Source of the DNA: Candidatus Zixiibacteriota bacterium
Lineage (GTDB): Bacteria; Zixibacteria; MSB-5A5; WJJR01
Length of the DNA: 12,636 nucleotides
Reading direction: 5' to 3'
Assembly: GCA_036170655.1 (NCBI GenBank)
Contig: JAVHPP010000088.1
Coordinates: forward strand, 1-12,636
Both the position numbers and the translations under genes were made by a program. This document shows positions 1 through 12,636 of the stretch, in pieces (within the stretch, counting starts at the first letter, position 1; every line of letters starts with the position of its first letter). The notes under the pieces were generated by a model. It saw nothing but the letters and a program-made list of their open reading frames with translations. It made no database searches and was not told the DNA's origin.

Positions 1-168
1 GGCACCTCAGGGGCGCTCTGGCAAGAGGGATACTTTGATCGTATTGTTCGTGATGAGACTGAGCTTCGCGAGAAGTTCGCGTACATGGTAAACAACCCAG
101 TCAAAGCGGTGTTGGTAACGGATTCTCAGCAATACGGGTTGTTCATTATTCCGCCCGAAGGGTTGTGA
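1..168 (+). mobile_element. 3' fragment of a REP-associated tyrosine transposase (RAYT / TnpA-REP, IS200/IS605-like Y1 HUH family); 5' part lies outside the window
   Basis: Frame +1 translates as GTSGALWQEGYFDRIVRDETELREKFAYMVNNPVKAVLVTDSQQYGLFIIPPEGL*, with stop TGA at 166-168. This matches the RAYT C-terminal signature WQxx(Y/F)xD(R/H)xxR...YxxxNP, which includes the catalytic Tyr. A GTAG-REP lies 8 nt downstream. Confidence 0.88.
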
Positions 169-176
169 CGAAAGAC

Positions 177-200
177 GCCGGACAAGAGTGTCCGGCCTAC
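177..200 (-). repeat. REP element: GTAG tetranucleotide plus 8-bp perfect palindromic stem
   Basis: The + strand reads GCCGGACA-AGAG-TGTCCGGC-CTAC; the - strand reads GTAG-GCCGGACA-CTCT-TGTCCGGC. This is the canonical GTAG+hairpin REP layout, adjacent to a RAYT gene. Only one copy is seen in the window. Confidence 0.85.
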
Positions 201-248
201 CGAAATGTGCGGAACGGTGAGTGTGTTAGGACGAAGGGAGAAACCACG

Positions 249-1427
249 ATGCAAGTAGAACACAATCGACAGTCTCGGAGCCACGCAATCAGGGTGGGCG
301 TTTGTTGTGTCCTTTCGGGTGCTTCTCTTCTCCTTGCCGCCTGCAGCAGTTCCCCCACCGGGCCGAAGGCGACGGATCACATTGTCGAGGGGGTCAACCT
401 CACGCAGGTGTTCAAGGCGCCGAGCGCGGCGGAGGTCAGCGCGATATTGCACGATTGGGAAACGCGTGATGTGTCAGCAAGAAACATTCGAGTGGAGGGC
501 AATTCAGGCGGGATCGGTGGAAGACCTGTGGGACCAACGGTGACTATCCTGTCGCACACGGTAGGTGGGATTCGGCATTTTGGGGCAGTTCTGGCGCAAG
601 CCAACAGGCCTGCGCGAACTGTTCCGATCCTGGTCTACGCCCACGGGGGAGATGGCGGCGAGAATTTGAGCCTGACCTTGAGCTTTCTGCCCTCCCAACT
701 CGCCGGGCTGCTGCAAGATTTTGTGGTCGTTGTTCCGTCGTTCCGGTCGGAACCCCTGGTGTTCGCCGGGAACACTTATGTGTCTGGGGGACAGCCCAGC
801 CCGTGGGATTACGATGTCGATGACGCGCTGGCGCTGCTGAACGCGGCGATTTCGATCACACCGTCGGCTGACCCGGCGCGCATCGGTGTGCTGGGGTTCA
901 GCCGTGGTGCGGGTGTGGGGATGCTGATGGCGATTCGCGACCCGCGCATCGACGCGGTGGTCGAATTTTTTGGGCCAGCCGATTTCTTTGGCAGCTATAT
1001 TCAAACATTGACCGAGGATGCACTGCGCGGCCATCCTCGTGATCTGCCGGGATTGAACTACCTCAATACCACTTTCATCCAACCACTGAAGGAACGCAAG
1101 ATTACGATCGCCGATTTCCGTCGCGAGATTGTGCGACGCTCGGCGGTTCTGTTTGCGGACCACTTGCCACAGGTGCAAGTGCATCATGGCACAGCCGATT
1201 CGGTTGTCGAATTCAGCCAGGCCGAGAGTCTGCGTGATGCGATGCACTCGCTGGGACGCGGCGAGCCGGAATTCGAATTCTATTCATATAGCGGGGGCAC
1301 GCACGACTTCACCACGCTCCGCGGCAGCCTCGATCGCGCGGTGGCCTTCCTGCAGCGGTTGCGGACGCCCCTTCTGGTTGACAGAACACCCGATGGTATG
1401 CGGCGTAATCGCCTGTTTGCCAAGTGA
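249..1427 (+). CDS. Lipoprotein alpha/beta-hydrolase (S9 prolyl-oligopeptidase-like / esterase), ~392 aa
   Basis: ATG at 249 is preceded by an AAGGGAG RBS. Lipobox LLLAA|C. Oxyanion-region motif YAHGG, nucleophile elbow GFSRG, acid HGTADSVV and His in GGTHDF. The 165 start of the ORF track would translate the REP and overlap the RAYT stop. Confidence 0.85.
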   Translation: MQVEHNRQSRSHAIRVGVCCVLSGASLLLAACSSSPTGPKATDHIVEGVNLTQVFKAPSAAEVSAILHDWETRDVSARNIRVEGNSGGIGGRPVGPTVTILSHTVGGIRHFGAVLAQANRPARTVPILVYAHGGDGGENLSLTLSFLPSQLAGLLQDFVVVVPSFRSEPLVFAGNTYVSGGQPSPWDYDVDDALALLNAAISITPSADPARIGVLGFSRGAGVGMLMAIRDPRIDAVVEFFGPADFFGSYIQTLTEDALRGHPRDLPGLNYLNTTFIQPLKERKITIADFRREIVRRSAVLFADHLPQVQVHHGTADSVVEFSQAESLRDAMHSLGRGEPEFEFYSYSGGTHDFTTLRGSLDRAVAFLQRLRTPLLVDRTPDGMRRNRLFAK

Positions 1428-1501
1428 CTACAGAATATAACTATTTTAATGGTGTATCCGCTAATCGTCTGGGCCAAACACGGCCCTGCAAGGCACGGCA
1501 G

Positions 1502-1525
1502 TGTCCCCAAAAATGTCCCAGAAAA
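1502..1525. repeat. Tandem 12-bp direct repeat TGTCCCCAAAAA / TGTCCCAGAAAA
   Basis: Seen directly (10/12 identical), ending 3 nt before the TTGACA hexamer. Function unknown. Confidence 0.55.
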
Positions 1526-1528
1526 CGC

Positions 1529-1557
1529 TTGACATACGATGTGGAATTGTCCATGAT
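1529..1557 (+). promoter_or_regulatory. Putative sigma70-type promoter for the cohesin-dockerin cluster
   Basis: Perfect TTGACA (1529-1534), 17-nt spacer, then CATGAT (1552-1557; 4/6 match to TATAAT). It lies in an AT-richer intergenic segment. Confidence 0.55.
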
Positions 1558-2068
1558 TGTGTTAGATAAGGCGGCTTCGGTGCCTGTACATGGGCGCGGC
1601 GCAATGAGGAACTGAGAGGAGAATCAATCACTGTCATGAGGTCTCTGGTCTTGGGTGAAATGGTTGACTGGTGATTTCCGATTACGTGAGCACCTGACAT
1701 CTGTACCGATTTTTTTGTTCCTCCTATCTTGAATGCCCTACGTGCTCTGGTAGTACGATACAGTTCTGATGAAACAGTGGGCCGGTCGGTGTGCCGGAAC
1801 CCGCACGGTGTGACTTGCCCTCTAATGTCATTCCGTCGAGGAATCGCCGACGCTGTGTGATCAGTATGCAGCGCCTGCGTCATGACGGGAAAACCATCGG
1901 GAGCACACGGAAAACAAACGGGGCAGGAGAGGGGGGCGCACGGTTGAGAATTGAATTGCGGTAATGCAGCGAATCTCCAGATGCCTTTTCACGCAGTATG
2001 TGGCGCGCAGAATCTGCGTCGCAGGACTTGAACGTAATCCGCCGGAGGGCGGAGAGGAGGAAGTGCTC

Positions 2069-5000
2069 ATGCGAGTTGCAAGATGTGTGTTTGCGGGGGT
2101 GGCGTTTCTCGCCGCGGGGCTATGGCTTGTCGCCGAGCCGGTGTACGGCGGACCGGTTGCCCCACGGGACGGCCAGGCAATCCTGACACAAGGTAAGATG
2201 CCGGGCGCGACGGCCGTGCGGTCGGCCGGTGTCATGACGGCGATGGCTCCCGGTGATCCGGTCAACATCAGCGCCTCGTTGGTTGCTGCATCAAATTACC
2301 TGAAACACATGCAGTCCGACGTAACGGAAGACAACGCCGGCAACGGCTCGGGTGTGACTGAGTCGCCCAATGACCTCGAAGATGGCGGTTGGGATTGGGT
2401 GCTGACGTCCCCGCCGGATCCATTTTTTCACACGGCAGGCGCAAGTCCGCCGAACCTCTATGGGGTGACGGCCTTGGGGTTGTACTACGGGTACTTGCAA
2501 ACGAGTGATCCGTCGTACTTCACGGCGATGACCGACGCGGCCGACGTGATGGTCGCTAATGTCGGCATCAAGTATTCTACAGACATGGTTTTTCTGATGC
2601 TGTATAACGACTTGCCAGGCGTTGTCGGCACGGCGTACAAAGATGCGGCCAAAGCAAAGTTCGATGCCCGCATCGCGACCTATGGCTCGGCGACCTTGTT
2701 CGCCCAGAACATGCGGGACACGCGCGGCGTGACCCAAGGGCACCCCAACGGGATCATCGGCTGGGACCTCGGTGCGTATGTGAAGGCAGCCGCGATGCTG
2801 GAAGTCCGGTATCCCTTGGATCTGTACGATTACGCGACCGCAGCCAGCGACATGGCCGAGGTGCTCTGGCAGGATTCCTTCAACAGCAATCCAGGATTGT
2901 TTGATATCGTTGCCGATGCGGGTTGGGATCCCACTTGGATGAATGCGAACTACTTGTGGTATACTCTGGGAGTTTCGGGCCTCATCGAGGCGTTCACGTC
3001 GTCCGGCACGCACATGGCCGAGGTGCCGGGTCTCGCAGCGAGGCTCCTTGCCAGCCAGTTCTCCAATGGTGCGATTAGCGGCAGCTATGGCGCCCATGCC
3101 ACCGACGAAGACTGGCAGTCGACGGCGTATGCGGCGCCCGCTCTGGCTGCGGTCAATCTCCCGCTCTATCAGGGCAAGATCAACCACATAGCCTACTGGC
3201 TTGGCGCAACTCAGGACGTGAGCGGCGGCTGGAAATACGGCGACAATATACACTACCCCGAAATCGGCGGCGAGTGCGCCAGCGCGCTGGCGCTGGGTCT
3301 GGCGCCATCGTATGTCATCGTCGATGATGGTTTCACGAGCCAGGCCGATGTGGATGTCTACAACACCGCCCATAGCACGGACTATGTCTTCGGCTACGAC
3401 GCGGTCGGCACGATCGCAGGTGGTGTCAATGGCGTGGCTGCCGGGGGAACGGTGCAAGTGTTAGCAGGCACGTACAATGAAGTCGACATCACGATTAATA
3501 AGGCGATGAGTGTTATCGGCGATCCCGGCACCTGCGGGCCCGGGCCTGATGCACCGGTGCTTCAGGGTACTGGCACTGGAATCACCGAGCGCGGCTTTAT
3601 CATCACCGCAGGTACCGATGATGTCTTGATCGACGGGTTTGTCGTTCAGAACTACGGAGGCATCCCGAATCAGGGCGGCGGTTCGTGTGGCGTATGGTCA
3701 TACGGCACCAGCGCTGACCCGGTCACCAATGTGACGGTGCAGAATTGCGCATTCAGCCACATTCGCTGGGCGGGGATCTTCTTCTATAATGAAGGTCACA
3801 GCATCTTTGACAATATCCAGATCCATTGCAATACCGTCAACATGGACAACGGGATGGCGGATAATGCCAATGAGTATGGCATTGAGTGTACCAACTGCAA
3901 GAACTCGGTGATCTCGGACAACACCGTTGACGGCGGATGGACTGGTATCTTGATGACTGCTCAGGCGCTTCGCAGTACGCCAACCTCAGTTACGGTGGAG
4001 CACAACACGATCAGCGGCAACACCGTCACGGGCTCGGTCGGTTGGACGGGCAACGTCGGCATCGTCTCTTACAGGGATCCCATCACCAACTCGGCGCTGA
4101 TCCGGAACATCACCATCTCCGGCAATCAGATCGCGAACAGCGTTGATTCCGGATACGGCGCGTACGGGATCAGGTCCTATCCTTTGAATGGCGGAACTTT
4201 TGCCGACACGATGAAGGTCTTCAACAACAGCTTTACCGGTAATGCCACCAAATCGCTCGGCAATCTGACCGGGATTTTGTGGGATGCCTCCGGTAACTAC
4301 TGGGGATCAAGCGACTCGGCGGCGGTCGTGGCCGCAGTCAGCAGCAATGTGGATTACACTCCCTGGATGCAAAACCCAGGCACGGTCCTGACCCCGGGGT
4401 TCAACGGCGATTTTTCGCTGCTCACTGTCGATGACAATAGCCCGCAATTTGGCGCTGTTGGCATCGTGCAGGAAGCCGTTGAGATGGTGTCGGGCAGCAC
4501 GATACTCTTGATGCCGGGGACCTATGCCGGCCAGGTTCACATGACGGGCTTCACGAATCTCAACCTCATCGGTTCCGGAGTTGGCTCGACGATCATCCAA
4601 CCGCCGGCGGCATCGATGACCAAGTACTTTACCACCAGCGGCAATAACTACCCGATTCTATTTGTTGAAAATTCCGACGCAGTGAATATTTCCAACCTGA
4701 CTGTGGACGGGCTGGGCAAGGGCAACATCAACTACCGTTTCATGGGTGTCGGCTATCATGACGCCGGCGGTGCGGTCAGTAACTGCGAAGTCAAGGATAT
4801 CCGTGAGACTCCCATCAGCGGCACGCAGCATGGCAACGGCATTTACGCTTATGTCGATGCGCTTCCCAATCGGACGCTGGATGTCACGAATTGCTGGGTG
4901 CACGGTTTCCAGAAGGGTGGCATCACCCTGAATGGCGTTGGTTTGACCGCGCATGTGAATGGGTGCAATGTTGAGGGCTACGGCCCAGCCAGCTTCATTG

Positions 5001-7822
5001 CCATGAACGGCATCCAGATCGGCTTCGGCGCCACCGGTTCGATCATCAATAACCAGGTGTCCGGATGCAACTACACGGGTGCAGGCTGGATTTCCGCCGC
5101 GATGCTGCTCTACAATCCGGCAGGAACGATCACGACGAAACACAACACAGTGACGGAAAGCCAGACGGGGATCTACTACATTAATGTTGGCGGTAACATC
5201 GACAGCAACACGGTGACCAACACGACAGCGGGAATGGGAACAACGACCTACTGGTGGTGCATTGTTGCCGATCCGGGAACGGGCACGTCTCACCTACCGA
5301 GTGCGCAGCCATTCGACGCGAATCTGGCTCTGACGCCATTCGGATCGGGACCAGCGACGATGGGTATTGCCACAATCACCACGTCAGCGACTGGGAACAT
5401 TGTCGATGGCGGCGGCAACGGGACAGGACTTGAAGCCGATGCCGTGAGTTCCTACGTGGGCACGGAGACGCTCAACTTCGCGGCGACGGGCAACCAGGTG
5501 ACCGGTTGTACGGCTGCTATGTCCACTTGGGAGGACCCGGGAACAACGGTCAACGTCACGCTCACGTCCAACCACTTTCTCTGGAATACCTATGGCATTG
5601 GCAACACGAGCGCTACAATCAGCGCTACTGGCAACGTCTTTGCCAATACCACCAACGGGGCCGATGATCAGCCGGGCAACTACTACAACGCGAATTGCTG
5701 GAATGACTACAATGGTACCCCGCCCTACCCTGTCGGCGGCGCCGGTGGCAACGTGGATACGAATCCGGTGTCAGATTGTGGTCTTGACATGTCGCCCAAT
5801 GCTATCCTGTACCATTGCAGCGGCAACTTCAACTTTGATGTCAGCATTGGCGATGCGGTACAGGACCTGGAGGGCGCGCATGTCGTGATTGAATACCCGG
5901 CAGGCTTGATCCTATCCAGTGTGATCAAGTCCTCCGCCAATTACACGCTGTTCTACGCGTTGACCGACAACGTCGTCGGGAACGATGTCCTGACGGTTGA
6001 TCTGGGGGTGCTGGCCGGTTCGCAGAATGGACCAGCGCCGCTGTTTACCGTTACGCTGAGCGGTAGTGTCGATCAGTGCGGCGGGTCTCAGATAAGCATG
6101 CCGTCGGCGCTTCTGCGCAACAGCGCCAACAATCCCATCATCGCCCCACTGGCGTCGCCGGTTTCACTCGTTGCCGATTGCGCCGACCCGGTATTTGCCG
6201 TCAACTCACCGGCCTCGGGTGGATTCTACAATGTCTCGCCTGTGCTGGACATCTCGGCGACTGATAACTGCAATCTCGACGCGGTCTACTACCAGATCGA
6301 CGGATGTCTCCCCGGTGGCTGGCTGCCGATTGCGGCCGGACTCGTGGGGACGACCTACGCCAATCCCGCCTGGACAATGCCGGGATTCGCCGGCCTCACC
6401 GAGGCGAATCACTGCATTCGTTTCAAGGTGATGGATGACAACGCACGCGGCAACGCCGACTCGTGCAGCTCCACCTGGTGTTTCACCAAGGACGTGACCC
6501 CGCCACCGCCGCCGACAGATCTGGTTGCGACGCCGGGGCACAACAAGGTTCACCTGAGCTGGACCAACGCAGTGAGTGACTTTAACCACGTCGTGATCAT
6601 GCGATCCGATTGGTATAGTATCGGACATGGTTATCCTGAGTACGACGACGACAATGCCGAAGGACCGTATCCGCCGGATACCTCCAGCGTTGATCGCGTC
6701 TATGCCGGGACGGCATCGACTCTCACGGATACCGACGACCTATCCAACGCCACGCGCGACGTGTATCACTATCGGGCGTTCACAGTCGATGCCGCTGGCA
6801 ATGTCTCGGTGCCGTCCAATAATGCCCGCTCGACGTCGTACTGGCTGGGCGACATCAAGTCCGCGTACGATGGCCAGGTCTACTTCGAGGATTTGACCGT
6901 GTTCTCGTCCGCTTTCGGCACGGCTCACGGCAATCCTGGATACAACAACGAAGTCGACTTTGGACCCACATACAACATGAGTCCGAAGGGCATTCCGACG
7001 ACCGACAATGTCATCGACTTCGAAGATTTGGCGATCTTTGCGATCAACTTCGACGCGGTCAATCCGCTCGCCAAGTTCGCACCGATCTTTGCTGATGCGG
7101 GACGTACGACCGATGTCACCGGACCGTTGTCTCTGTCACTGGTCGTCCCGTCGCAGTTACCGGTGATCGGGGAAACGTTCACTGTCCAAGTCGTTCTGGC
7201 CAACAATGTCGATCAGGTCAAGGGTATCCGTTTTGTTCTCCCGTATGACCAGACACGGCTGGAGCTGGTTGCTGTGACGATGAACCCGCAACTGCGGCAG
7301 TCGCAGTGGCCGGTTTTCTTCGCCAGCAAGGATATGAACCACGCAATCGATGCCAGTTTTGCTCTCTTGGGCGGGAAAGCCGCCATGGGCGGATCGGGCG
7401 AGATTGCGTCCGTCACCTTCAAACTCCTGGAGGCGGAAAACGTGATCCTCAACTTCGATGCGGTCGACATGAGGGACAGCGAGAATCACCGGCTGGATGT
7501 GGTCTATCACGGGGCACAACTGGCGGCTGGTTCAACGCTCCCGAAATCCTTCTATCTGGCGCAGAACTATCCAAATCCGTACAACGCCGCAACCCAGATC
7601 GTCTATCAGGTTTCCGAGGCGGCGCACGTCTCTCTCCAGGTCTATAATGTGACAGGACAACTTGTCAAGACACTGGTTGACAACGTGCAGGAACCGGGCA
7701 CCTACACGGTATCGTGGGATGCACGGGGTGAAAACGGCGCAGAAGCCTCCACCGGTGTCTATTTCTACCGGATGGTGGCCGGGCATTACGTCGCCACCAA
7801 GAAGATGGTGATCATCAAGTAG
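2069..7822 (+). CDS. Large secreted multidomain protein (~1917 aa): QW-repeat alpha-toroid-like domain, two right-handed beta-helix modules, cohesin, Ig-like, FN3, dockerin-like, cohesin, T9SS type A / FlgD-Ig C-terminal domain
   Basis: ATG at 2069 follows a GAGAGGAGG RBS and starts a signal peptide (MRVARCVFAGVAFLAAGLWLVAEPVYG). Approximate domains: QW-like motifs 2270-3300; beta-helices with TI..GV...GGTVQVLAGTY and GIVQEAV...TILLMPGTY caps plus many IxxNxV repeats at 3310-4370 and 4420-5770; cohesin 5785-6180; Ig-like 6180-6490; FN3 (PPPPPTDLVATPGHNKVHLSW...YHYRAFTVDAAGNVS) 6500-6835; dockerin-like 6840-7060; cohesin (GETFTVQV...GIRFVLPYD...GSGEIASVTF) 7120-7510; sorting domain (LAQNYPNPYN...GVYFYRM...TKKMVIIK*) 7540-7822. 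Confidence 0.9.
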   Translation: MRVARCVFAGVAFLAAGLWLVAEPVYGGPVAPRDGQAILTQGKMPGATAVRSAGVMTAMAPGDPVNISASLVAASNYLKHMQSDVTEDNAGNGSGVTESPNDLEDGGWDWVLTSPPDPFFHTAGASPPNLYGVTALGLYYGYLQTSDPSYFTAMTDAADVMVANVGIKYSTDMVFLMLYNDLPGVVGTAYKDAAKAKFDARIATYGSATLFAQNMRDTRGVTQGHPNGIIGWDLGAYVKAAAMLEVRYPLDLYDYATAASDMAEVLWQDSFNSNPGLFDIVADAGWDPTWMNANYLWYTLGVSGLIEAFTSSGTHMAEVPGLAARLLASQFSNGAISGSYGAHATDEDWQSTAYAAPALAAVNLPLYQGKINHIAYWLGATQDVSGGWKYGDNIHYPEIGGECASALALGLAPSYVIVDDGFTSQADVDVYNTAHSTDYVFGYDAVGTIAGGVNGVAAGGTVQVLAGTYNEVDITINKAMSVIGDPGTCGPGPDAPVLQGTGTGITERGFIITAGTDDVLIDGFVVQNYGGIPNQGGGSCGVWSYGTSADPVTNVTVQNCAFSHIRWAGIFFYNEGHSIFDNIQIHCNTVNMDNGMADNANEYGIECTNCKNSVISDNTVDGGWTGILMTAQALRSTPTSVTVEHNTISGNTVTGSVGWTGNVGIVSYRDPITNSALIRNITISGNQIANSVDSGYGAYGIRSYPLNGGTFADTMKVFNNSFTGNATKSLGNLTGILWDASGNYWGSSDSAAVVAAVSSNVDYTPWMQNPGTVLTPGFNGDFSLLTVDDNSPQFGAVGIVQEAVEMVSGSTILLMPGTYAGQVHMTGFTNLNLIGSGVGSTIIQPPAASMTKYFTTSGNNYPILFVENSDAVNISNLTVDGLGKGNINYRFMGVGYHDAGGAVSNCEVKDIRETPISGTQHGNGIYAYVDALPNRTLDVTNCWVHGFQKGGITLNGVGLTAHVNGCNVEGYGPASFIAMNGIQIGFGATGSIINNQVSGCNYTGAGWISAAMLLYNPAGTITTKHNTVTESQTGIYYINVGGNIDSNTVTNTTAGMGTTTYWWCIVADPGTGTSHLPSAQPFDANLALTPFGSGPATMGIATITTSATGNIVDGGGNGTGLEADAVSSYVGTETLNFAATGNQVTGCTAAMSTWEDPGTTVNVTLTSNHFLWNTYGIGNTSATISATGNVFANTTNGADDQPGNYYNANCWNDYNGTPPYPVGGAGGNVDTNPVSDCGLDMSPNAILYHCSGNFNFDVSIGDAVQDLEGAHVVIEYPAGLILSSVIKSSANYTLFYALTDNVVGNDVLTVDLGVLAGSQNGPAPLFTVTLSGSVDQCGGSQISMPSALLRNSANNPIIAPLASPVSLVADCADPVFAVNSPASGGFYNVSPVLDISATDNCNLDAVYYQIDGCLPGGWLPIAAGLVGTTYANPAWTMPGFAGLTEANHCIRFKVMDDNARGNADSCSSTWCFTKDVTPPPPPTDLVATPGHNKVHLSWTNAVSDFNHVVIMRSDWYSIGHGYPEYDDDNAEGPYPPDTSSVDRVYAGTASTLTDTDDLSNATRDVYHYRAFTVDAAGNVSVPSNNARSTSYWLGDIKSAYDGQVYFEDLTVFSSAFGTAHGNPGYNNEVDFGPTYNMSPKGIPTTDNVIDFEDLAIFAINFDAVNPLAKFAPIFADAGRTTDVTGPLSLSLVVPSQLPVIGETFTVQVVLANNVDQVKGIRFVLPYDQTRLELVAVTMNPQLRQSQWPVFFASKDMNHAIDASFALLGGKAAMGGSGEIASVTFKLLEAENVILNFDAVDMRDSENHRLDVVYHGAQLAAGSTLPKSFYLAQNYPNPYNAATQIVYQVSEAAHVSLQVYNVTGQLVKTLVDNVQEPGTYTVSWDARGENGAEASTGVYFYRMVAGHYVATKKMVIIK

Positions 7823-7837
7823 CTCTTGGGCTGATGT

Positions 7838-7874
7838 GGGAGGAGCGTCCCGTGGTATGCGGGGCGCTCCACCC
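7838..7874 (+). terminator. GC-rich intergenic stem-loop without a U-tract (weak terminator or mRNA-stabilising hairpin)
   Basis: GGAGCGTCCCGT-GGTAT-GCGGGGCGCTCC (7842-7870) forms 12 bp including two G-U pairs, extendable by GGG/CCC. It is followed by TTCAAA rather than poly-U. Confidence 0.55.
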
Positions 7875-7920
7875 TTCAAATCATCATTAAGAGGGTTCTT
7901 AGCAGTAAGGAGCAAGGGTT

Positions 7921-8664
7921 ATGCAGATTCGGCGGGGTCTTCGTCTTGGCGCCTTTCTGGCGATTCTGACGCTTGGGCCAATTGCATCAGGATCGGCAGC
8001 TCCGGGGCAGGTGTACTTCACTCCTGCGACTCAGACGGTCACCCCTTTCGACACATTTGAAGTCAGCATCGCGGTTGATGCCGCTTTGCACAATATTCAC
8101 TGTTTCCGCACGCAGGTGAACTTCATCCGTCCGAATGTTCGCATCCTGGACATTCGCGAGGGCCCGTTGCTCAGCGGCGCAGGAGGCACATTTTTCTTCT
8201 CGAAGGACACCATGGGTGTTTACGACATTTTTAGCTGTATCCTTGGCAATGGTCTCTTTGCGAATGGACCGGGCGTGCTGGCGATCATGAAGTTCGTTAC
8301 CGATGCGTCGCCCTGCACTACACCGTTGCAATTCAGCTATGTCCACATCGAGGACCCTCTCCTCGATTCCATGACGGTGAGTTCCGTGGACGGGATCGTG
8401 ATCGTTCCCAGTTGCTGCGACTGCTCCTTGCACGGTGATATCAATGGCGATGGTGCCTACGACGTCCTCGATGTGGTTGGCATCATCGACCATGTCTTCA
8501 ATGGGGCACCACAGCCCCCCCATGATCCTGCCTGCCCGCATAAGGACAGAGGGGACTACAACTGCGACGGGTCTGATGATGTGCTTGACGTTGTTTACGT
8601 GATCGACTTGGCATTTAGCGGCGGCGCGTTTCCCTGTGATCCCTGTTTGCTGGGATCCTGGTGA
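7921..8664 (+). CDS. Secreted cohesin + Cys-rich dockerin protein (247 aa)
   Basis: AAGGAG RBS and signal peptide. Cohesin-like beta-sandwich (FEVSIAVD...FRTQVNF...IREGPLL...NGPGVLAIMKF...DGIVIV). C-terminal dockerin with two EF-hand-like loops, GDINGDGAYDVLD and GDYNCDGSDDVLD (~8413-8646). Confidence 0.85.
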   Translation: MQIRRGLRLGAFLAILTLGPIASGSAAPGQVYFTPATQTVTPFDTFEVSIAVDAALHNIHCFRTQVNFIRPNVRILDIREGPLLSGAGGTFFFSKDTMGVYDIFSCILGNGLFANGPGVLAIMKFVTDASPCTTPLQFSYVHIEDPLLDSMTVSSVDGIVIVPSCCDCSLHGDINGDGAYDVLDVVGIIDHVFNGAPQPPHDPACPHKDRGDYNCDGSDDVLDVVYVIDLAFSGGAFPCDPCLLGSW

Positions 8665-8687
8665 GCGCATACTCTGGAGGTTGTACG

Positions 8688-9416
8688 ATGGTGAAGATGA
8701 CTTTACGAATCAGCATGATTGTGATGCTTGCGGGATTGGGGGGCTTGGTCTTGCCGGGTGAGCAGGCTTGGGGACAACGGACTTATATCAATCCCGCAAA
8801 CTTCAGAAATCACTGCAATGTAAGTGACACGCTTTGGATTTGGATTGACGATCAGCTCGCCGGGATCGAGGGCGCCAGCTTCAGTCTGGCATTCGATCAG
8901 TCCATCGCCAATGTGGATACGGTCATAGCAGAGCCGTTTCTGGCCGGCAACATGTTCCTCGCTTTTCGGCGATACAGTCCCGACTCGTTGAATGTTGACT
9001 TGGGTATTCTTTCCGGATCGGTCAGCGGCCCGACGCCTCTGTTTGGTGTCGTGGTCACGCTTACGGACAACCTGGGACTGACGACGCTCGTCCAGACACG
9101 CTCGATTCTGCGCAATGCGAACAACCAAGATATCGTGCACCTGTCGGCGGCCGGGGGGATCGACAATCCCTGTTGTTGCCAGTACCATGGTGTCATGGTG
9201 GATGATGGCGTTTTCAACGCGCTGGATATTGTGGCGCTCATCGATTACATATTCCGGAGCGCGGGTGCCCCGCCGACTGACCCCGGATGCCCGCATATCA
9301 ACCGCAGCGACGTCAACTGCGACGGCGTGCCGAATGTGCTGGACATCGTGCGCATGATCGACTTCGTTTTTGGCGGGGTTCCGCTGTGCGAGCCCTGTGA
9401 TGCCGTCATTCCATAG
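8688..9416 (+). CDS. Secreted cohesin + Cys-rich dockerin protein (~242 aa), paralogous in architecture to the upstream gene
   Basis: ATG at 8688 follows a GGAGG RBS and starts a signal peptide. Cohesin-like domain (IEGASFSLAFD...SGPTPLF...ILRNANNQDI). Dockerin with a degenerate first loop (GVMVDDGVFNALD) and an intact second loop (DVNCDGVPNVLD), ~9171-9398. Confidence 0.85.
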   Translation: MVKMTLRISMIVMLAGLGGLVLPGEQAWGQRTYINPANFRNHCNVSDTLWIWIDDQLAGIEGASFSLAFDQSIANVDTVIAEPFLAGNMFLAFRRYSPDSLNVDLGILSGSVSGPTPLFGVVVTLTDNLGLTTLVQTRSILRNANNQDIVHLSAAGGIDNPCCCQYHGVMVDDGVFNALDIVALIDYIFRSAGAPPTDPGCPHINRSDVNCDGVPNVLDIVRMIDFVFGGVPLCEPCDAVIP

Positions 9417-9653
9417 CCGGGTGGTCATTCCGTTTACGTAACACAGTCTGAGTTGCTGTTTTCTGATCGACACTGCCATTGTCTTGGTTCGGGCTCGGGT
9501 GCTCCCCGCTTCGTCCCGGCAAGGCGATCCGTTGTGTAATGGTTATCGTGTACGATCGCTCGGTCCCGTTTGTACCGGTCTGTCCTGAGTCCGAAGTTGA
9601 ATCTTGACTCGCAGCGGGCTTTTCCGTCTATAAGGGCGGAGAGGACGGGGGCG

Positions 9654-10775
9654 ATGAGCAGGTATATCGGCAGTCCCAATTTCGAGCATGGCCGGATGTC
9701 CGTGACGGGGATTCTTCTGGTCAATCTGGGCACGCCCGATGCGCCGACGCCCCGGGCACTGCGGCGTTACCTCAAGCAGTTCCTCTGGGATCCGCGTGTC
9801 GTCGAGATATCGCGTCCTGTCTGGTGGCTGATCCTCAACGGCATCATCCTCAACACCCGGCCCAGGCGCTCGGCACACGCCTACCGTCAGGTTTGGACCG
9901 AGGATGGGTCGCCTCTTCTGATTCATACCCGCCGCCAAGCGTCCGCGCTCGAAGCAAGTCTGAAACAGCGCATTGGCAGCCCTTTGCAGGTGGCGATGGG
10001 GATGCGTTATGGCAAACCGTCAATCATGGCTGGTCTGGACATGCTCCGCCAGCATGGATGCAGCCGTATCCTCGTATTTCCGCTTTATCCCCAGTACGCG
10101 GCCGCGACAACGGCGTCGACCTTCGATGCGGTCTTTGAAGTCATCACGACCTGGCGTTGGGTCCCCGAACTGCGGACCATAGCGCAATACCATGACGATC
10201 AGGCTTATATCGGCGCGCTGGCAAGCAGCGTGCGGGAGCTCTGGCAGAAAGACGGTGAGCCGGAGAAACTGCTGTTTTCCTTTCACGGGACACCAAAGGA
10301 ATCGCTCCTCGCCGGCGATCCGTACCACTGTCAGTGTCAGAAAACGGCCCGCCTTGTGGCCGAGGCGCTGTGTTTGCCGCCCGAGCGGTGGCAGGTTGCG
10401 TTCCAGTCGCGCTTCGGACGCGCCGAATGGCTCCAGCCCTATACCGATGTGACACTAAAGGAATGGGGGCGAGATGGTGTTCGCAGTGTCGATGTGATCT
10501 GTCCCGGTTTCTCTTCCGATTGTCTCGAAACGATCGCGGAGATCGGTATCGAGAACCGCGACCATTTCCTGCGAAGCGGAGGTCGGCAATACCGCTACAT
10601 CCCGGCGCTCAACGACCGTCCCGACCACATCGCAATGCTCGCCGATCTGGCTCTGCGTCACATGCAAGGCTGGACGGTTGCGAGGGAATCGTGGGATGCG
10701 AACGCCGCCCGTACGGCGGCCACAGAATCCGCCCGGCGCGCCGAAGAATTACAGCAGAGAAAAACCAGCCAGTGA
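9654..10775 (+). CDS. hemH: Ferrochelatase (~373 aa)
   Basis: Motifs GILLVNLGTP, FLWDPRVVE, GSPL, MRYGKP, PLYPQY, SFHG (catalytic His), FQSRFG..EWLQP, PGFSSDCLET and YIPALN. The likely start is ATG 9654 (MSRYIG) after GAGGACGGGG. Confidence 0.97.
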   Translation: MSRYIGSPNFEHGRMSVTGILLVNLGTPDAPTPRALRRYLKQFLWDPRVVEISRPVWWLILNGIILNTRPRRSAHAYRQVWTEDGSPLLIHTRRQASALEASLKQRIGSPLQVAMGMRYGKPSIMAGLDMLRQHGCSRILVFPLYPQYAAATTASTFDAVFEVITTWRWVPELRTIAQYHDDQAYIGALASSVRELWQKDGEPEKLLFSFHGTPKESLLAGDPYHCQCQKTARLVAEALCLPPERWQVAFQSRFGRAEWLQPYTDVTLKEWGRDGVRSVDVICPGFSSDCLETIAEIGIENRDHFLRSGGRQYRYIPALNDRPDHIAMLADLALRHMQGWTVARESWDANAARTAATESARRAEELQQRKTSQ

Positions 10776-10843
10776 ACTGGCCGGCCGGGACGACGAAGGC
10801 AGTGATGTTGTCGGCGAGGCAGAGTCCGGTTCAATCAGGTTTT

Positions 10844-11893
10844 CTACCCTGACCCATGCCGTTTTGCGTCAGCCGGTCCCGGCGAGCCAGACTCGCTTTG
10901 GAGGACTTGGAACTCAAACCGCCAGGCAACATCCGTGTAGGGTTGCCCGTCCAAGCGGACGTACGGGTAGATAAGATAGTTGACTGAGGTGGAGTCGCCG
11001 TTTCCCTCCAGCGGGATATCGCGGCCGATGGTGAAGGCGACACGATTGGCATCGAGTGTGCCGAAGAAGTAATCGGCCTTGTCCGGGTGCTTGATGGCTT
11101 CGGAGGCATCGACGGGGATCCAGCCTTCGCCATCGATATACAGGTCGGCCCAGCAGTGATACCCTTGGATCTCACCCGATGTCGATGTGTCCGGCAGGGG
11201 GAATCCCATGGTGAACCGCGCCGGGATTCCTTCCGCCCGTGCCATCCCGATCAAGAGTGAGTGGATGTCGGAGCAGTTGCCGCGCCGCGCCGTGCAGGCG
11301 AAAACCGCATCGCCCTGTCCCCATCCGGCGCCGCTCTTGTCGTACTTCATCGTTGACAACACATGGTCGTAGAGCGCCCGTGCCTTGTCCCGGTTCCCTG
11401 TGAGATTGCCGGCGATTTCATGGGCCTCGCGCGCAATCGGACCATCGATCGGCACCAGCGCGTCCGGCTGCAGAAACCGCTTGAGCAGGTTGCTGGATTG
11501 ACTCGTCACCGCCGCTGTGCGGAGCAGACCCGCCTCCAAACGGCGGACCCGGAATGTCATGACGATCGGCAGACTATCGGGAATGTCTGTCGGGATGTCA
11601 AAGAAGAGAGCATGGTTGCCGTACTGTGGATCAGTTCGCTGTGAAAAGGGAACTGGCGACTTGACCCGAAGGCCGGATATCGTCTGCCGTTCATCGCTCT
11701 GCGGAGCCGGGATCCATACCTCCAGATTTCGCGCATTCTTTGGTAGGTTCCGAACGGTGACCTTGTAAGAGAACTCAAGGAATTTCGACACAGGCTCGGC
11801 GGCGTTCCCTGGCCCACTGGCGCCGACTGCGGCCACCATGACGGTGGCCGTCAGCAGGCACACCGACCTTATCATCCTCATGTACTCCGTCAT
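10844..11893 (-). CDS. Secreted transglutaminase-like domain protein (~345-349 aa)
   Basis: Cys-His-Asp triad motifs GNCSD, YHCWA and WIPVDAS, plus ARAEGIPAR. N-terminal signal peptide. The start could be ATG 11893, 11881 or 11875. Confidence 0.9.
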   Translation of the reverse strand: MTEYMRMIRSVCLLTATVMVAAVGASGPGNAAEPVSKFLEFSYKVTVRNLPKNARNLEVWIPAPQSDERQTISGLRVKSPVPFSQRTDPQYGNHALFFDIPTDIPDSLPIVMTFRVRRLEAGLLRTAAVTSQSSNLLKRFLQPDALVPIDGPIAREAHEIAGNLTGNRDKARALYDHVLSTMKYDKSGAGWGQGDAVFACTARRGNCSDIHSLLIGMARAEGIPARFTMGFPLPDTSTSGEIQGYHCWADLYIDGEGWIPVDASEAIKHPDKADYFFGTLDANRVAFTIGRDIPLEGNGDSTSVNYLIYPYVRLDGQPYTDVAWRFEFQVLQSESGSPGPADAKRHGSG

Positions 11894-11965
11894 CAGTTCG
11901 ATCCTACCGGGGAGTATGTTCCGGCCGAGGCCGATCGGGGCCCCGGCCAATGATTGCTGCCCGAA

Positions 11966-12454
11966 TCACTTCGCCGCCACGGGTTGTTTCTTCCAGATGC
12001 CGCCATCCTCTTTCCATGTGTAGCGGGGGGCGCCATTGATCTTGTGAACCGAGATGTCCGTGGTCACCAGGTCTTTCTCGCCCTTCTTCATGAAGATATC
12101 GAGATCATAAATCGTGTTGTCGGGAGCGGTACAATCCACACAGGCAAAATAGACATCCCCGCCGAGGGAGGCCAGTTTGTCCTCGTGCACTTTCGACAGT
12201 TTCAGTTGCAGCGTCTTCTTGTCTTGAGGATCATAGACAAGAAAGTAGCCGCCTTTGATCTTGGAATCCTGGGCCACGTAGTCCTTGATGGCCTGCGAGA
12301 GCGCTGTCATCGTCAATTCATTCTTGGGGTGCTGCATGCTGCTCATGGATTCTTTGGGATGTTCCGGGTGCTCTTGTGCCTGTACTCCCGCGGCCATCAT
12401 CAACCCGGCGCTGAGCATGGCGGCCGGGATCGACATCCATGTGCTTTTTTTCAT
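11966..12454 (-). CDS. Secreted hypothetical protein (162 aa) with an N-terminal EHPEHP motif
   Basis: ATG at 12454 follows a GGAGAGGAG RBS. Signal peptide MKKSTW...AGVQA|QEHPEHP, then a globular-looking, Lys-rich domain. Co-directional with the transglutaminase gene, 72 nt upstream of its earliest ATG. Confidence 0.85.
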   Translation of the reverse strand: MKKSTWMSIPAAMLSAGLMMAAGVQAQEHPEHPKESMSSMQHPKNELTMTALSQAIKDYVAQDSKIKGGYFLVYDPQDKKTLQLKLSKVHEDKLASLGGDVYFACVDCTAPDNTIYDLDIFMKKGEKDLVTTDISVHKINGAPRYTWKEDGGIWKKQPVAAK

Positions 12455-12522
12455 TGGGTTCTCCTCTCCCGTTGGTTCAATTCGTTTTGCTCGGGACATC
12501 CGAGCATCCGACAAAGCACATG

Positions 12523-12549
12523 TTACCTTGTTTGACGTGAGTTTGTTCC
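12523..12549 (-). promoter_or_regulatory. Possible ECF-sigma promoter for the EHPEHP-protein/transglutaminase pair
   Basis: The - strand reads GGAAC-N17-GGTAA, about 70 nt upstream of ATG 12454. It resembles GGAAC-N16/17-(C/G)GT ECF promoters, but the motif is short and could be chance. Confidence 0.3.
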
Positions 12550-12584
12550 GGTCTTTCGAAAACGGTCTGCCCCGCGCCGCTGTG

Positions 12585-12628
12585 CGCCCGCCGCATCTTC
12601 GTGTTGTGAAGTGACACGGAGGCGGGCG
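12585..12628. other. Imperfect inverted repeat / hairpin in an apparently non-coding region
   Basis: CGCCCGCC (12585-12592) pairs with GGCGGGCG (12621-12628); inner TTCGTGT pairs with ACACGGA. No U-tract on either side. Confidence 0.4.
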
Positions 12629-12636
12629 TCTATCGG

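Follow-up and report, generated by a model that had tools for sequence, protein, structure and literature searches.

We analyzed a stretch of 12,636 nucleotides (nt) from a Candidatus Zixiibacteriota bacterium (GenBank assembly GCA_036170655.1, contig JAVHPP010000088.1, positions 1 to 12,636, here called the window) and found that positions 2069 to 9416 of the forward strand hold a real, conserved and uncharacterized operon of three genes, whose predicted-secreted products combine cohesins (the sockets) with dockerins (the plugs). The reading that we favor, at what we judge to be about an even chance, is that these modules make up a finite two-tier surface display system, in which the two small proteins would serve as adaptors. 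The open reading frames (ORFs) run from 2069 to 7822 (P0001, 1917 aa, from now on the giant), 7921 to 8664 (P0002, 247 aa) and 8688 to 9416 (P0003, 242 aa), all on the + strand. A preliminary description of this DNA had spoken of three co-directional secreted proteins with gaps of 98 and 23 nt, and the ORFs were confirmed with these intergenic distances. An AGGAG/GGAGG-type ribosome-site motif upstream of each start and a hydrophobic, signal-like N-terminal stretch on each product were both read by eye. In the case of P0003, an in-frame GTG at 8661 would give a longer ORF, and the ribosome site belongs to the ATG at 8688. The homologue search for this protein gave 2 proteins, and the search for its alignment 20. 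Since copies of P0002 and P0003 with 99% identity exist in other assemblies, the small genes are not assembly artefacts.

The giant (2069–7822, +) is a cargo of type IX secretion system (T9SS) type and reads, from the N-terminus, as a signal-like stretch (2069–2149, +), an α/α-toroid, two β-helices, cohesin G1, an Ig-like domain, an FN3-like domain, a type-II-like dockerin, a linker with a K-x-x-P motif, cohesin G2 and a T9SS tail. The two cohesin-like domains assigned to it beforehand both model as cohesins, with the nine-stranded jelly roll that is also seen in cohesin A of P0002. G1 (5783–6184, +) aligned with 2vo8 at a VIA Z of 17.8 (rmsd 1.7, 127 aligned residues), and G2 (7118–7528, +) with 6kgc at a VIA Z of 17.4 (rmsd 2.4, 133 aligned residues); moreover, G2 passed the Pfam Cohesin cut-off of 24.1 with 29 and 32 bits. 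Within G2, a Lys, a Phe and an Arg in strands 3, 5 and 8 are invariant (17/17), and the face formed by these strands is presumably the one that binds dockerins in solved complexes. The Ig-like and FN3-like domains (6185–6832, +) are all-β in the model, the FN3 label coming from the sequence pattern; Pfam Big_7 was matched in 3 of 17 members, and the cohesin plus FN3 part matches 2w1n. The Foldseek search with the 679-aa model of the giant returned multi-Ig matches only, and the VIA realignment was used instead, which barely probes the Ig, FN3 and dockerin domains.

The dockerin of the giant (6833–7066, +) was recognized by profile and model. Pfam detected it in 1 of 35 members (E 0.099); however, its profile found 4u3s_B among PDB sequences with an E of 1.1e-4, and six of the seven matches were cellulosomal dockerin-bearing chains, which sets it in the type-II-like class. 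The model has a pLDDT of about 58–83 in this region. The conserved second helix, FEDLxIFAINF, is nearly invariant in its FED motif, and the module is without a paralogue in the genome of the window (labeled G000; its relatives carry further G-numbers and are grouped in families f1 and so on). The domain in front of it is FN3-like and may occupy the position of the X-module that precedes type II dockerins, the X-module identity being an analogy. Behind the dockerin lies a low-confidence linker (7067–7117, +) whose K-x-x-P motif, with K and P each kept in 88% of 17 sequences, is a candidate processing site. In a larger set, Lys or Arg was found in the linker between dockerin and G2 in 65 of 75 sequences, and the distance from the dockerin to the C-terminus was 217–258 aa in 75/75, which leaves room for a cohesin and a tail. 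The tail itself (7544–7819, +), described beforehand as T9SS/FlgD-like, is a FlgD-like T9SS type A sorting domain with 38.8 bits to TIGR04183 (cut-off, 23 bits) and matches to PF18962 and PF13860. With TIGR04183 above its cut-off and a signal read by eye, P0001 is classed as T9SS type A cargo. Five more T9SS cargo proteins of G000 (C41:720–3482, C140:6083–8359, C121:2–1810, C12:4217–4906 and C11:2–1897) have a C-terminal cassette in a giant-like order, i.e., dockerin, linker (often with Lys), a domain of about 120 aa and the tail.

Both small proteins consist of a signal, one cohesin and one dockerin, with no catalytic domain, as is found in adaptor scaffoldins. In P0002 (7921–8664, +), cohesin A (about 8005–8409) is followed by a Cys-flanked cargo dockerin (8410–8652). 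Its model has a pLDDT of 88.8, the best Foldseek match was the cohesin 1g1k (E 5.5e-11), and cohesin A gave a VIA Z of 17.6 (rmsd 1.9, 133 aligned residues), the next non-cohesin standing at 9.7. Cohesin A belongs to the same family as G2, and several aromatic residues follow one another in its strand 5. P0003 (8688–9416, +) contains cohesin B (about 8772–9167) and a cargo dockerin (about 9168–9407), and its cohesin was assigned by homology, since BLASTP aligned it with G1 (E 1e-7, 26% identity over 118 aa) and thereby placed both in one family. The dockerins of P0002 and P0003 scored 13.7 and 20.3 bits, below the Pfam cut-off of 22.9, and the Pfam scan of single full-length P0002, P0003 and P0001 sequences gave no cohesin match. 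In P0002 orthologues, Dockerin_1 was matched in 14 of 25; the top PDB match of the P0002 dockerin profile was a type I dockerin (E 7.6e-5), and the model shows the two helices of a duplicated F-hand loop-helix and aligns with 2ccl_B at a VIA Z of 8.8. The first calcium loop of the P0003 dockerin is degenerate and lacks the first Asp (GVMVDD, where orthologues have GD). Thus, the preliminary assignment of a cohesin and a dockerin to each of the three proteins holds, and the plugs are now divided into type-I-like ones on the small proteins and a type-II-like one on the giant. The architecture of P0002 and P0003 is not unique in G000, because two other small proteins (C5:10097–11011 and C70:4203–5063), without a Pfam match, look by eye like a cohesin followed by a cargo dockerin.

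The operon is conserved in the phylum. The FN3–dockerin segment of the giant was detected in 72 of 239 genomes, and all the listed genomes belong to the same class. Forty loci were fetched from the best matches; 37 contain the full C-terminal module, and the other three have G1 and Ig and then a different end. Cohesin G2 is present in 37/37. Downstream of the module, two small cohesin plus dockerin genes lie in 24 of the 37 loci, in accordance with the scaffold and adaptor operon proposed beforehand, while three loci have one small gene, one has a larger cohesin plus dockerin gene, and five have no small gene; in one more, the contig ends after the giant, and the small pair sits on another contig. 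Among the 24, one has a split second gene (L283:3187–3904 of G067), which lies across two frames owing to a frameshift or a sequencing error. In the three loci of family f17 that were examined (G056, G241 and G242), the small gene is, in 3/3, a cohesin A with a T9SS tail, i.e., the plug is swapped for the tail. The P0002-type gene is the one kept where a single small gene is present and, of the two, is inherited together with the giant most often. A G1-like second small gene is seen in the family of the window only; in other families this gene is G2/A-like. The length of giant orthologues ranges from about 600 to 2,760 aa, and their constant part is the FN3–dockerin–linker–G2–tail segment, preceded by G1 and Ig in most. 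Among the best 80 loci of a contig-wide search, the whole module was found in 2, and the rest were dominated by the T9SS tail. The whole module also occurs in two public records (L046 and L047), to which their depositors gave the title 'uncultured Ignavibacteria'. In the Atlas, the top cluster for P0002 consists mainly of members from Zixiibacteriota, and RpoB of G000, in a comparison of five sequences, is 69% identical to two Zixibacteria records versus 59% to those of KSB1/Ignavibacteria.

A genome census then showed that the plug of the small proteins is a common tag. The cargo-type dockerin was found on 41 ORFs of G000, in 36 of them 20 aa or less from the C-terminus, and the T9SS tail on 40; only three ORFs have both. 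Dockerin-bearing proteins elsewhere had been supposed in the preliminary description, and many of those found are peptidases (9 of the 30 scanned by Pfam, the others being propellers and cadherin-like proteins). No glycoside-hydrolase catalytic family was found in 32 of the 41 dockerin ORFs (the 30 scanned plus P0002 and P0003), and no carbohydrate-binding module (CBM) was matched by Pfam, in line with the earlier remark that no cellulase or CBM3 motif is recognizable. The P0002 dockerin is 69% identical to that of an unrelated G000 protein, while its identity with the orthologues from the genus is 51–54%. Likewise, in 14/14 genomes the gene 1 dockerin is closer to the gene 2 dockerin of its own genome than to orthologues of other families; the same comparison for cohesins gave 0/14, the sockets being closer to their orthologues. 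Since the plugs are homogenized within genomes, one shared partner per genome is suggested for the common plug. Two residues at specificity positions, which we take to be those numbered after type I dockerins and which were read from alignments, do not vary inside a genome and change from genus to genus (VL in G000, VF in G002/G003, AV in G004/G008, and IS, LS, VS or ID elsewhere). At least 15 matches (15–92) to the P0002 dockerin were found in 46 of 60 relatives, and the single-contig genome G043 has 63, with similarity to the giant at the level of the tail only. The giant is thus not needed for the common tag, since many genomes in which no giant was found are rich in it.

The host is a diderm with T9SS parts. 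In G000, SprA scored 597.9 bits, seven PorV proteins were above the cut-off, and a C25 protein with a tail, adjoining PorV, was on this basis assigned as PorU-like. Contig C33 (about 3000–53600) brings together SprA, two dockerin cargo genes, the PorU-like C25 gene, PorV and one more gene for a protein with a tail. For the common cargo dockerin, the best candidate socket appears to be a protein that we call cohR (C140:3014–4093, L144 of G000), which from its sequence has a signal, one divergent cohesin-like domain and a T9SS tail. It was detected in 44 of the 61 genomes searched, as a rule in single copy, and Pfam Cohesin was matched in 11 of 38 aligned members. No cohR was found in 13 genomes of families f3, f4, f10 and f17, and in these the TIGR04183 tail is plentiful, with at least 78 matches in 11, 68 in one and 39 in a half-complete one; the other 48 genomes have 23–66 matches, and none above 66. 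In the eight f3/f4 genomes, Pfam dockerins number 0–2, and cohesins are scarce too. A second candidate socket or anchor could be a lipoprotein-cohesin (C154:3069–4067, L146 of G000), with a lipoprotein-like signal (LAGLG-C) and a C-terminal cohesin-like domain; 28 of the 61 genomes have one copy of it. The C45-type cohesin-like domains, considered as a universal socket, were rejected, as they are restricted to family f1 (15/61). Three more secreted cohR-like domains of G000 stand alone, with neither a tail nor a dockerin (C24:7864–8508, C93:6515–7420 and C120:2023–2643), and one of them has a lipoprotein-like signal.

In the display system that we favor, the giant is likely exported via its own T9SS tail, and the small proteins would be cargo, hung by their common dockerin on a general socket, cohR or the C154 lipoprotein, with the cargo dockerin acting as an indirect T9SS tag. 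A socket encoded elsewhere is suggested because the plug is the common tag, is abundant without the giant and is swapped for the T9SS tail. Once tethered, the small proteins would present new cohesins as adaptors. The type-II-like dockerin of the giant would pair with G2, the cohesin that always follows it, and the toroid/β-helix body would possibly be held on the anchored stub by this dockerin–G2 contact after the Lys-linker is cut. From there, the dockerin might pass to cohesin A of P0002, since A is in the G2 family and its gene is the one most often inherited with the giant. The outcome would be a short tree of anchor, adaptor and giant rather than an endless chain. We infer every binding step, the cleavage of the linker and the localization of the proteins. 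A bolder version, which we regard as possible though doubtful, takes the dockerin as a stand-in for the T9SS signal: one small cohesin–T9SS carrier would move dozens of secreted proteins, including P0002 and P0003, across the outer membrane or fix them on it, and the second plug of the giants would re-bind their own cohesin after the linker cut and be passable to adaptors.

Several observations weigh against this display system. The cohR profile was paired with the adaptor profile at an HHalign probability of 3%, and its best PDB match had an E of 0.52. The f10/f17 genomes without a clear cohR plus tail gene carry 6–20 Pfam dockerins, many of them terminal, which weakened the idea that the genomes lacking cohR are precisely those lacking dockerins; profile searches in f10 and f17 gave weak, tail-less cohesins only, all of them in f17. 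As f17 keeps terminal dockerins, a loss of dockerins does not explain why its tag is swapped. The cohR matches in f8, f12, f15 and f16 are weak, and part of them are to other cohesins; four dockerin-rich genomes (59–97% complete) were without a cohR match when a single query was used. The trade-off between tail and dockerin rests on four families, which may be one or two clades. The homogenized plugs point to a partner that is shared, and not to which partner it is, and at least a dozen further cohesin-like proteins in G000 are each a possible socket. Finally, GldM, the sole motor/ring component searched, was not found in G000, where the control was also without a match.

Other arrangements of the same modules have to be weighed. 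In a cellulosome-like scaffold, G1 and cohesin B would bind the cargo dockerin, the giant would recruit the peptidases, and the small proteins would extend or branch the complex. Two cohesins in one exported protein, the nine peptidases among 30 dockerin proteins, the conserved operon and the want of any other candidate ligand for G1 and B all fit this arrangement, and the same model has been proposed for Cloacimonadota (PMC8542988). Nonetheless, most dockerin-rich genomes are without a recognizable giant, a pair of dissimilar cohesins is a small number for about 36 cargo proteins, and the G1-like second small gene is confined to the family of the window, so we consider the scaffold rather unlikely. 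The preliminary description went further and proposed a self-assembling chain or lattice, the plug of each unit fitting the socket of another and the two-socket giant making branches. Its non-cellulosomal folds and its scaffold and adaptor operon stand; the lattice finds little in its favor, because the plugs fall into two classes and that of the small proteins is the common cargo tag, whereas a lattice would require this plug to fit a cohesin of the operon. Both modules are indeed on every member, binding of the common tag by cohesin B would let P0003 chain, and the tight junction between cohesin and dockerin in the small proteins, as read from the P0002 model, would favor binding in trans. 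Self-pairing is also plausible and not unprecedented, since the cohesin and dockerin of Archaeoglobus fulgidus ORF 2375 (PDB 2xdh) were used as a matching pair (PMC3520109). That cohesin is among the top structural matches of the P0002 model (Z 17.3), and there too both modules come from one ORF; in contrast, that protein is archaeal, has no T9SS in the text available and binds its own partner, which we think less likely for P0002 and P0003. On the other hand, about three dozen monovalent cargo proteins with the same plug would cap the chains, a T9SS tail takes the place of the plug in 3 loci, the small genes are absent in 5/37, and the plug and socket of one gene have different histories. On balance, we hold the chain or lattice to be improbable.

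We give an equally low credence to a reading without pairing, where the cohesin folds would be spacers or adhesin domains that bind glycans or proteins. The terminal dockerin would then be recognized as a sorting signal by a component of the T9SS, e.g., a PorV paralogue, rather than by a cohesin. The tag swaps and the genome-wide trade-off would fit it equally well, PorV has seven paralogues above the cut-off, the f17/f10 genomes keep terminal dockerins without a clear cohR, and the aromatic run in strand 5 of cohesin A could be read in the same sense. However, a conserved operon that combines four cohesin folds with three dockerins argues against it, as do the strict adjacency of dockerin and cohesin in the giant, with invariant basic residues on G2 and a conserved acidic FED motif on the dockerin, and the joint scarcity of cohesins and dockerins in f3/f4.

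The toroid, β-helices, Ig and FN3 domains of the giant were absent from the preliminary description, and the first two make up a passenger of about 1,230 N-terminal residues, i.e., about two thirds of the protein. The α/α-toroid (2249–3304, +; about 350 aa) has QW repeats like those of squalene-hopene cyclases and prenyltransferases and was assigned by a sequence match to 1gsz (E 7.4e-8). Compared with a class II terpene cyclase, this match spans the QW-type repeats only, and the toroid is a single 350-aa domain. Of the 17 related giants that were looked at first, 8 have the toroid, at 57–79% identity, and in the other 9 it was not found. It occurs with either tag and, in the alignment, has a conserved acidic loop near its N-terminus; Atlas leads for it were all under 0.9. 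The toroid family has 894 representatives at E ≤ 0.001 and 209 at 1e-30, fused to a T9SS tail or a dockerin or standing alone, with an invariant Asp/Asn-rich loop and a conserved His, Arg and Glu; no family name for it was found in this analysis. The family is possibly an enzyme. The two right-handed β-helix regions (3305–5782, +), which vary between orthologues, gave 39.3 bits to Pfam Beta_helix in 2 stretches and 0 matches among PDB sequences. The toroid and β-helices likely serve adhesion or polymer binding.

Between the genes of the giant and P0002 lies a 12-bp RNA hairpin without a U-tract (7842–7870, +; z -3.5, with 0/200 shuffles as good). A longer hairpin is found in the same place in G002 and G003 (z -4.0 and -4.6). 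The hairpin between these genes may set the ratio of their products. A weak sigma-70-like site (TTGACA-17-CATGAT, 1529–1557, +; 10 of 12 matches) lies 512 nt upstream of the giant, in a scan with 10 such sites observed versus 4.6 ± 2.1 in shuffles. The Rfam scan gave 0 matches, and the terminator scan showed no terminator-like site downstream of the operon. The flanking genes code for an α/β hydrolase with a lipoprotein-like signal and DLH/S9 Pfam matches (165–1427, +), a ferrochelatase (9570–10775, +) and a transglutaminase-like secreted protein (10844–11950, -), and a His/Met-rich secreted protein of 162 aa without a Pfam match (11966–12454, -). Genes flanking the operon vary between relatives, and the hydrolase, ferrochelatase and transglutaminase-like genes were dismissed as operon members, not being conserved beside it.

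When compared with known systems, the operon would work like cellulosomal adaptor wiring, yet it is not a cellulosome. It shares with Ruminococcus flavefaciens ScaC, Acetivibrio cellulolyticus ScaA/ScaB and Clostridium thermocellum CipA the cohesin fold, adaptors of a single cohesin and dockerin, and the use of two dockerin classes, type-I-like on the cargo and type-II-like on the large protein. Like a scaffoldin, the giant has at least two cohesins, here of different families; in contrast, neither dockerin-bearing cellulases or hemicellulases, nor other glycoside hydrolases, nor a CBM3 on the giant were found, the host is a diderm, and the giant has a T9SS tail in place of a surface-layer homology (SLH) domain or sortase. 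In addition, the type-II-like dockerin of the giant is internal and followed by a cohesin, and the cargo dockerins are Cys-flanked. Clostridium perfringens non-cellulosomal cohesin proteins form complexes. Among them, the GH33 sialidase (2vo8) is the best match of G1 (Z 17.8), and both this protein and GH84C, with its cohesin–FN3 pair (2w1n), have a cohesin followed by Ig/FN3 domains inside a large multidomain secreted protein; unlike the giant, they are Gram-positive glycosidases.

Precedents in silico exist in other phyla. A cellulosome-like complex has been proposed for Ca. Stygibacter of the Cloacimonadota (Williams et al. 2021, PMC8542988), likewise a diderm with dockerin-tagged peptidases and a large cohesin protein whose C-terminus is a sorting domain. 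As far as the accessible part of that paper goes, its scaffoldin differs in having tandem cohesins and CBMs, and an adaptor pair, a type-II-like cis cassette and a tag swap are not described there. The planctosome of Nemodlikiaceae (Planctomycetes; Andrei et al. 2019, PMC6461901) also combines a non-cellulosomal anchor, a cohesin/dockerin adaptor and peptidases; it differs, in the portion of the text available, in its phylum, its lamin-tail-domain anchor and the lack of a T9SS. The non-cellulolytic ANME archaea have many dockerin fusions and cohesin plus dockerin proteins (PMC9012536), and Limihaloglobus sulfuriphilus has a Coh-Doc-Coh protein with modules in the order of the giant (PMC11557425); in the accessible parts of both papers a link to T9SS is absent, and the cohesin–dockerin pairing is predicted there too. 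Our literature search, outside of which lie most subscription journals and supplements, gave no paper on cohesins or dockerins of Zixibacteria and none for Latescibacteria.

The role of non-cellulosomal cohesins and dockerins is a long-standing question, and almost every case from a diderm has been sketched in silico only. Together with cohR and the lipoprotein candidates, the operon offers a small, soluble and finite set of six cohesins and two dockerin classes whose wiring is testable, and it would supply new orthogonal cohesin–dockerin pairs for designer enzyme complexes. If the carrier version is true, a two-tier cohesin code would exist outside cellulosomes. If the dockerin does replace the T9SS tail, it would provide an indirect route of T9SS export or anchoring for as many as 90 or more proteins in a genome, across most of the phylum.

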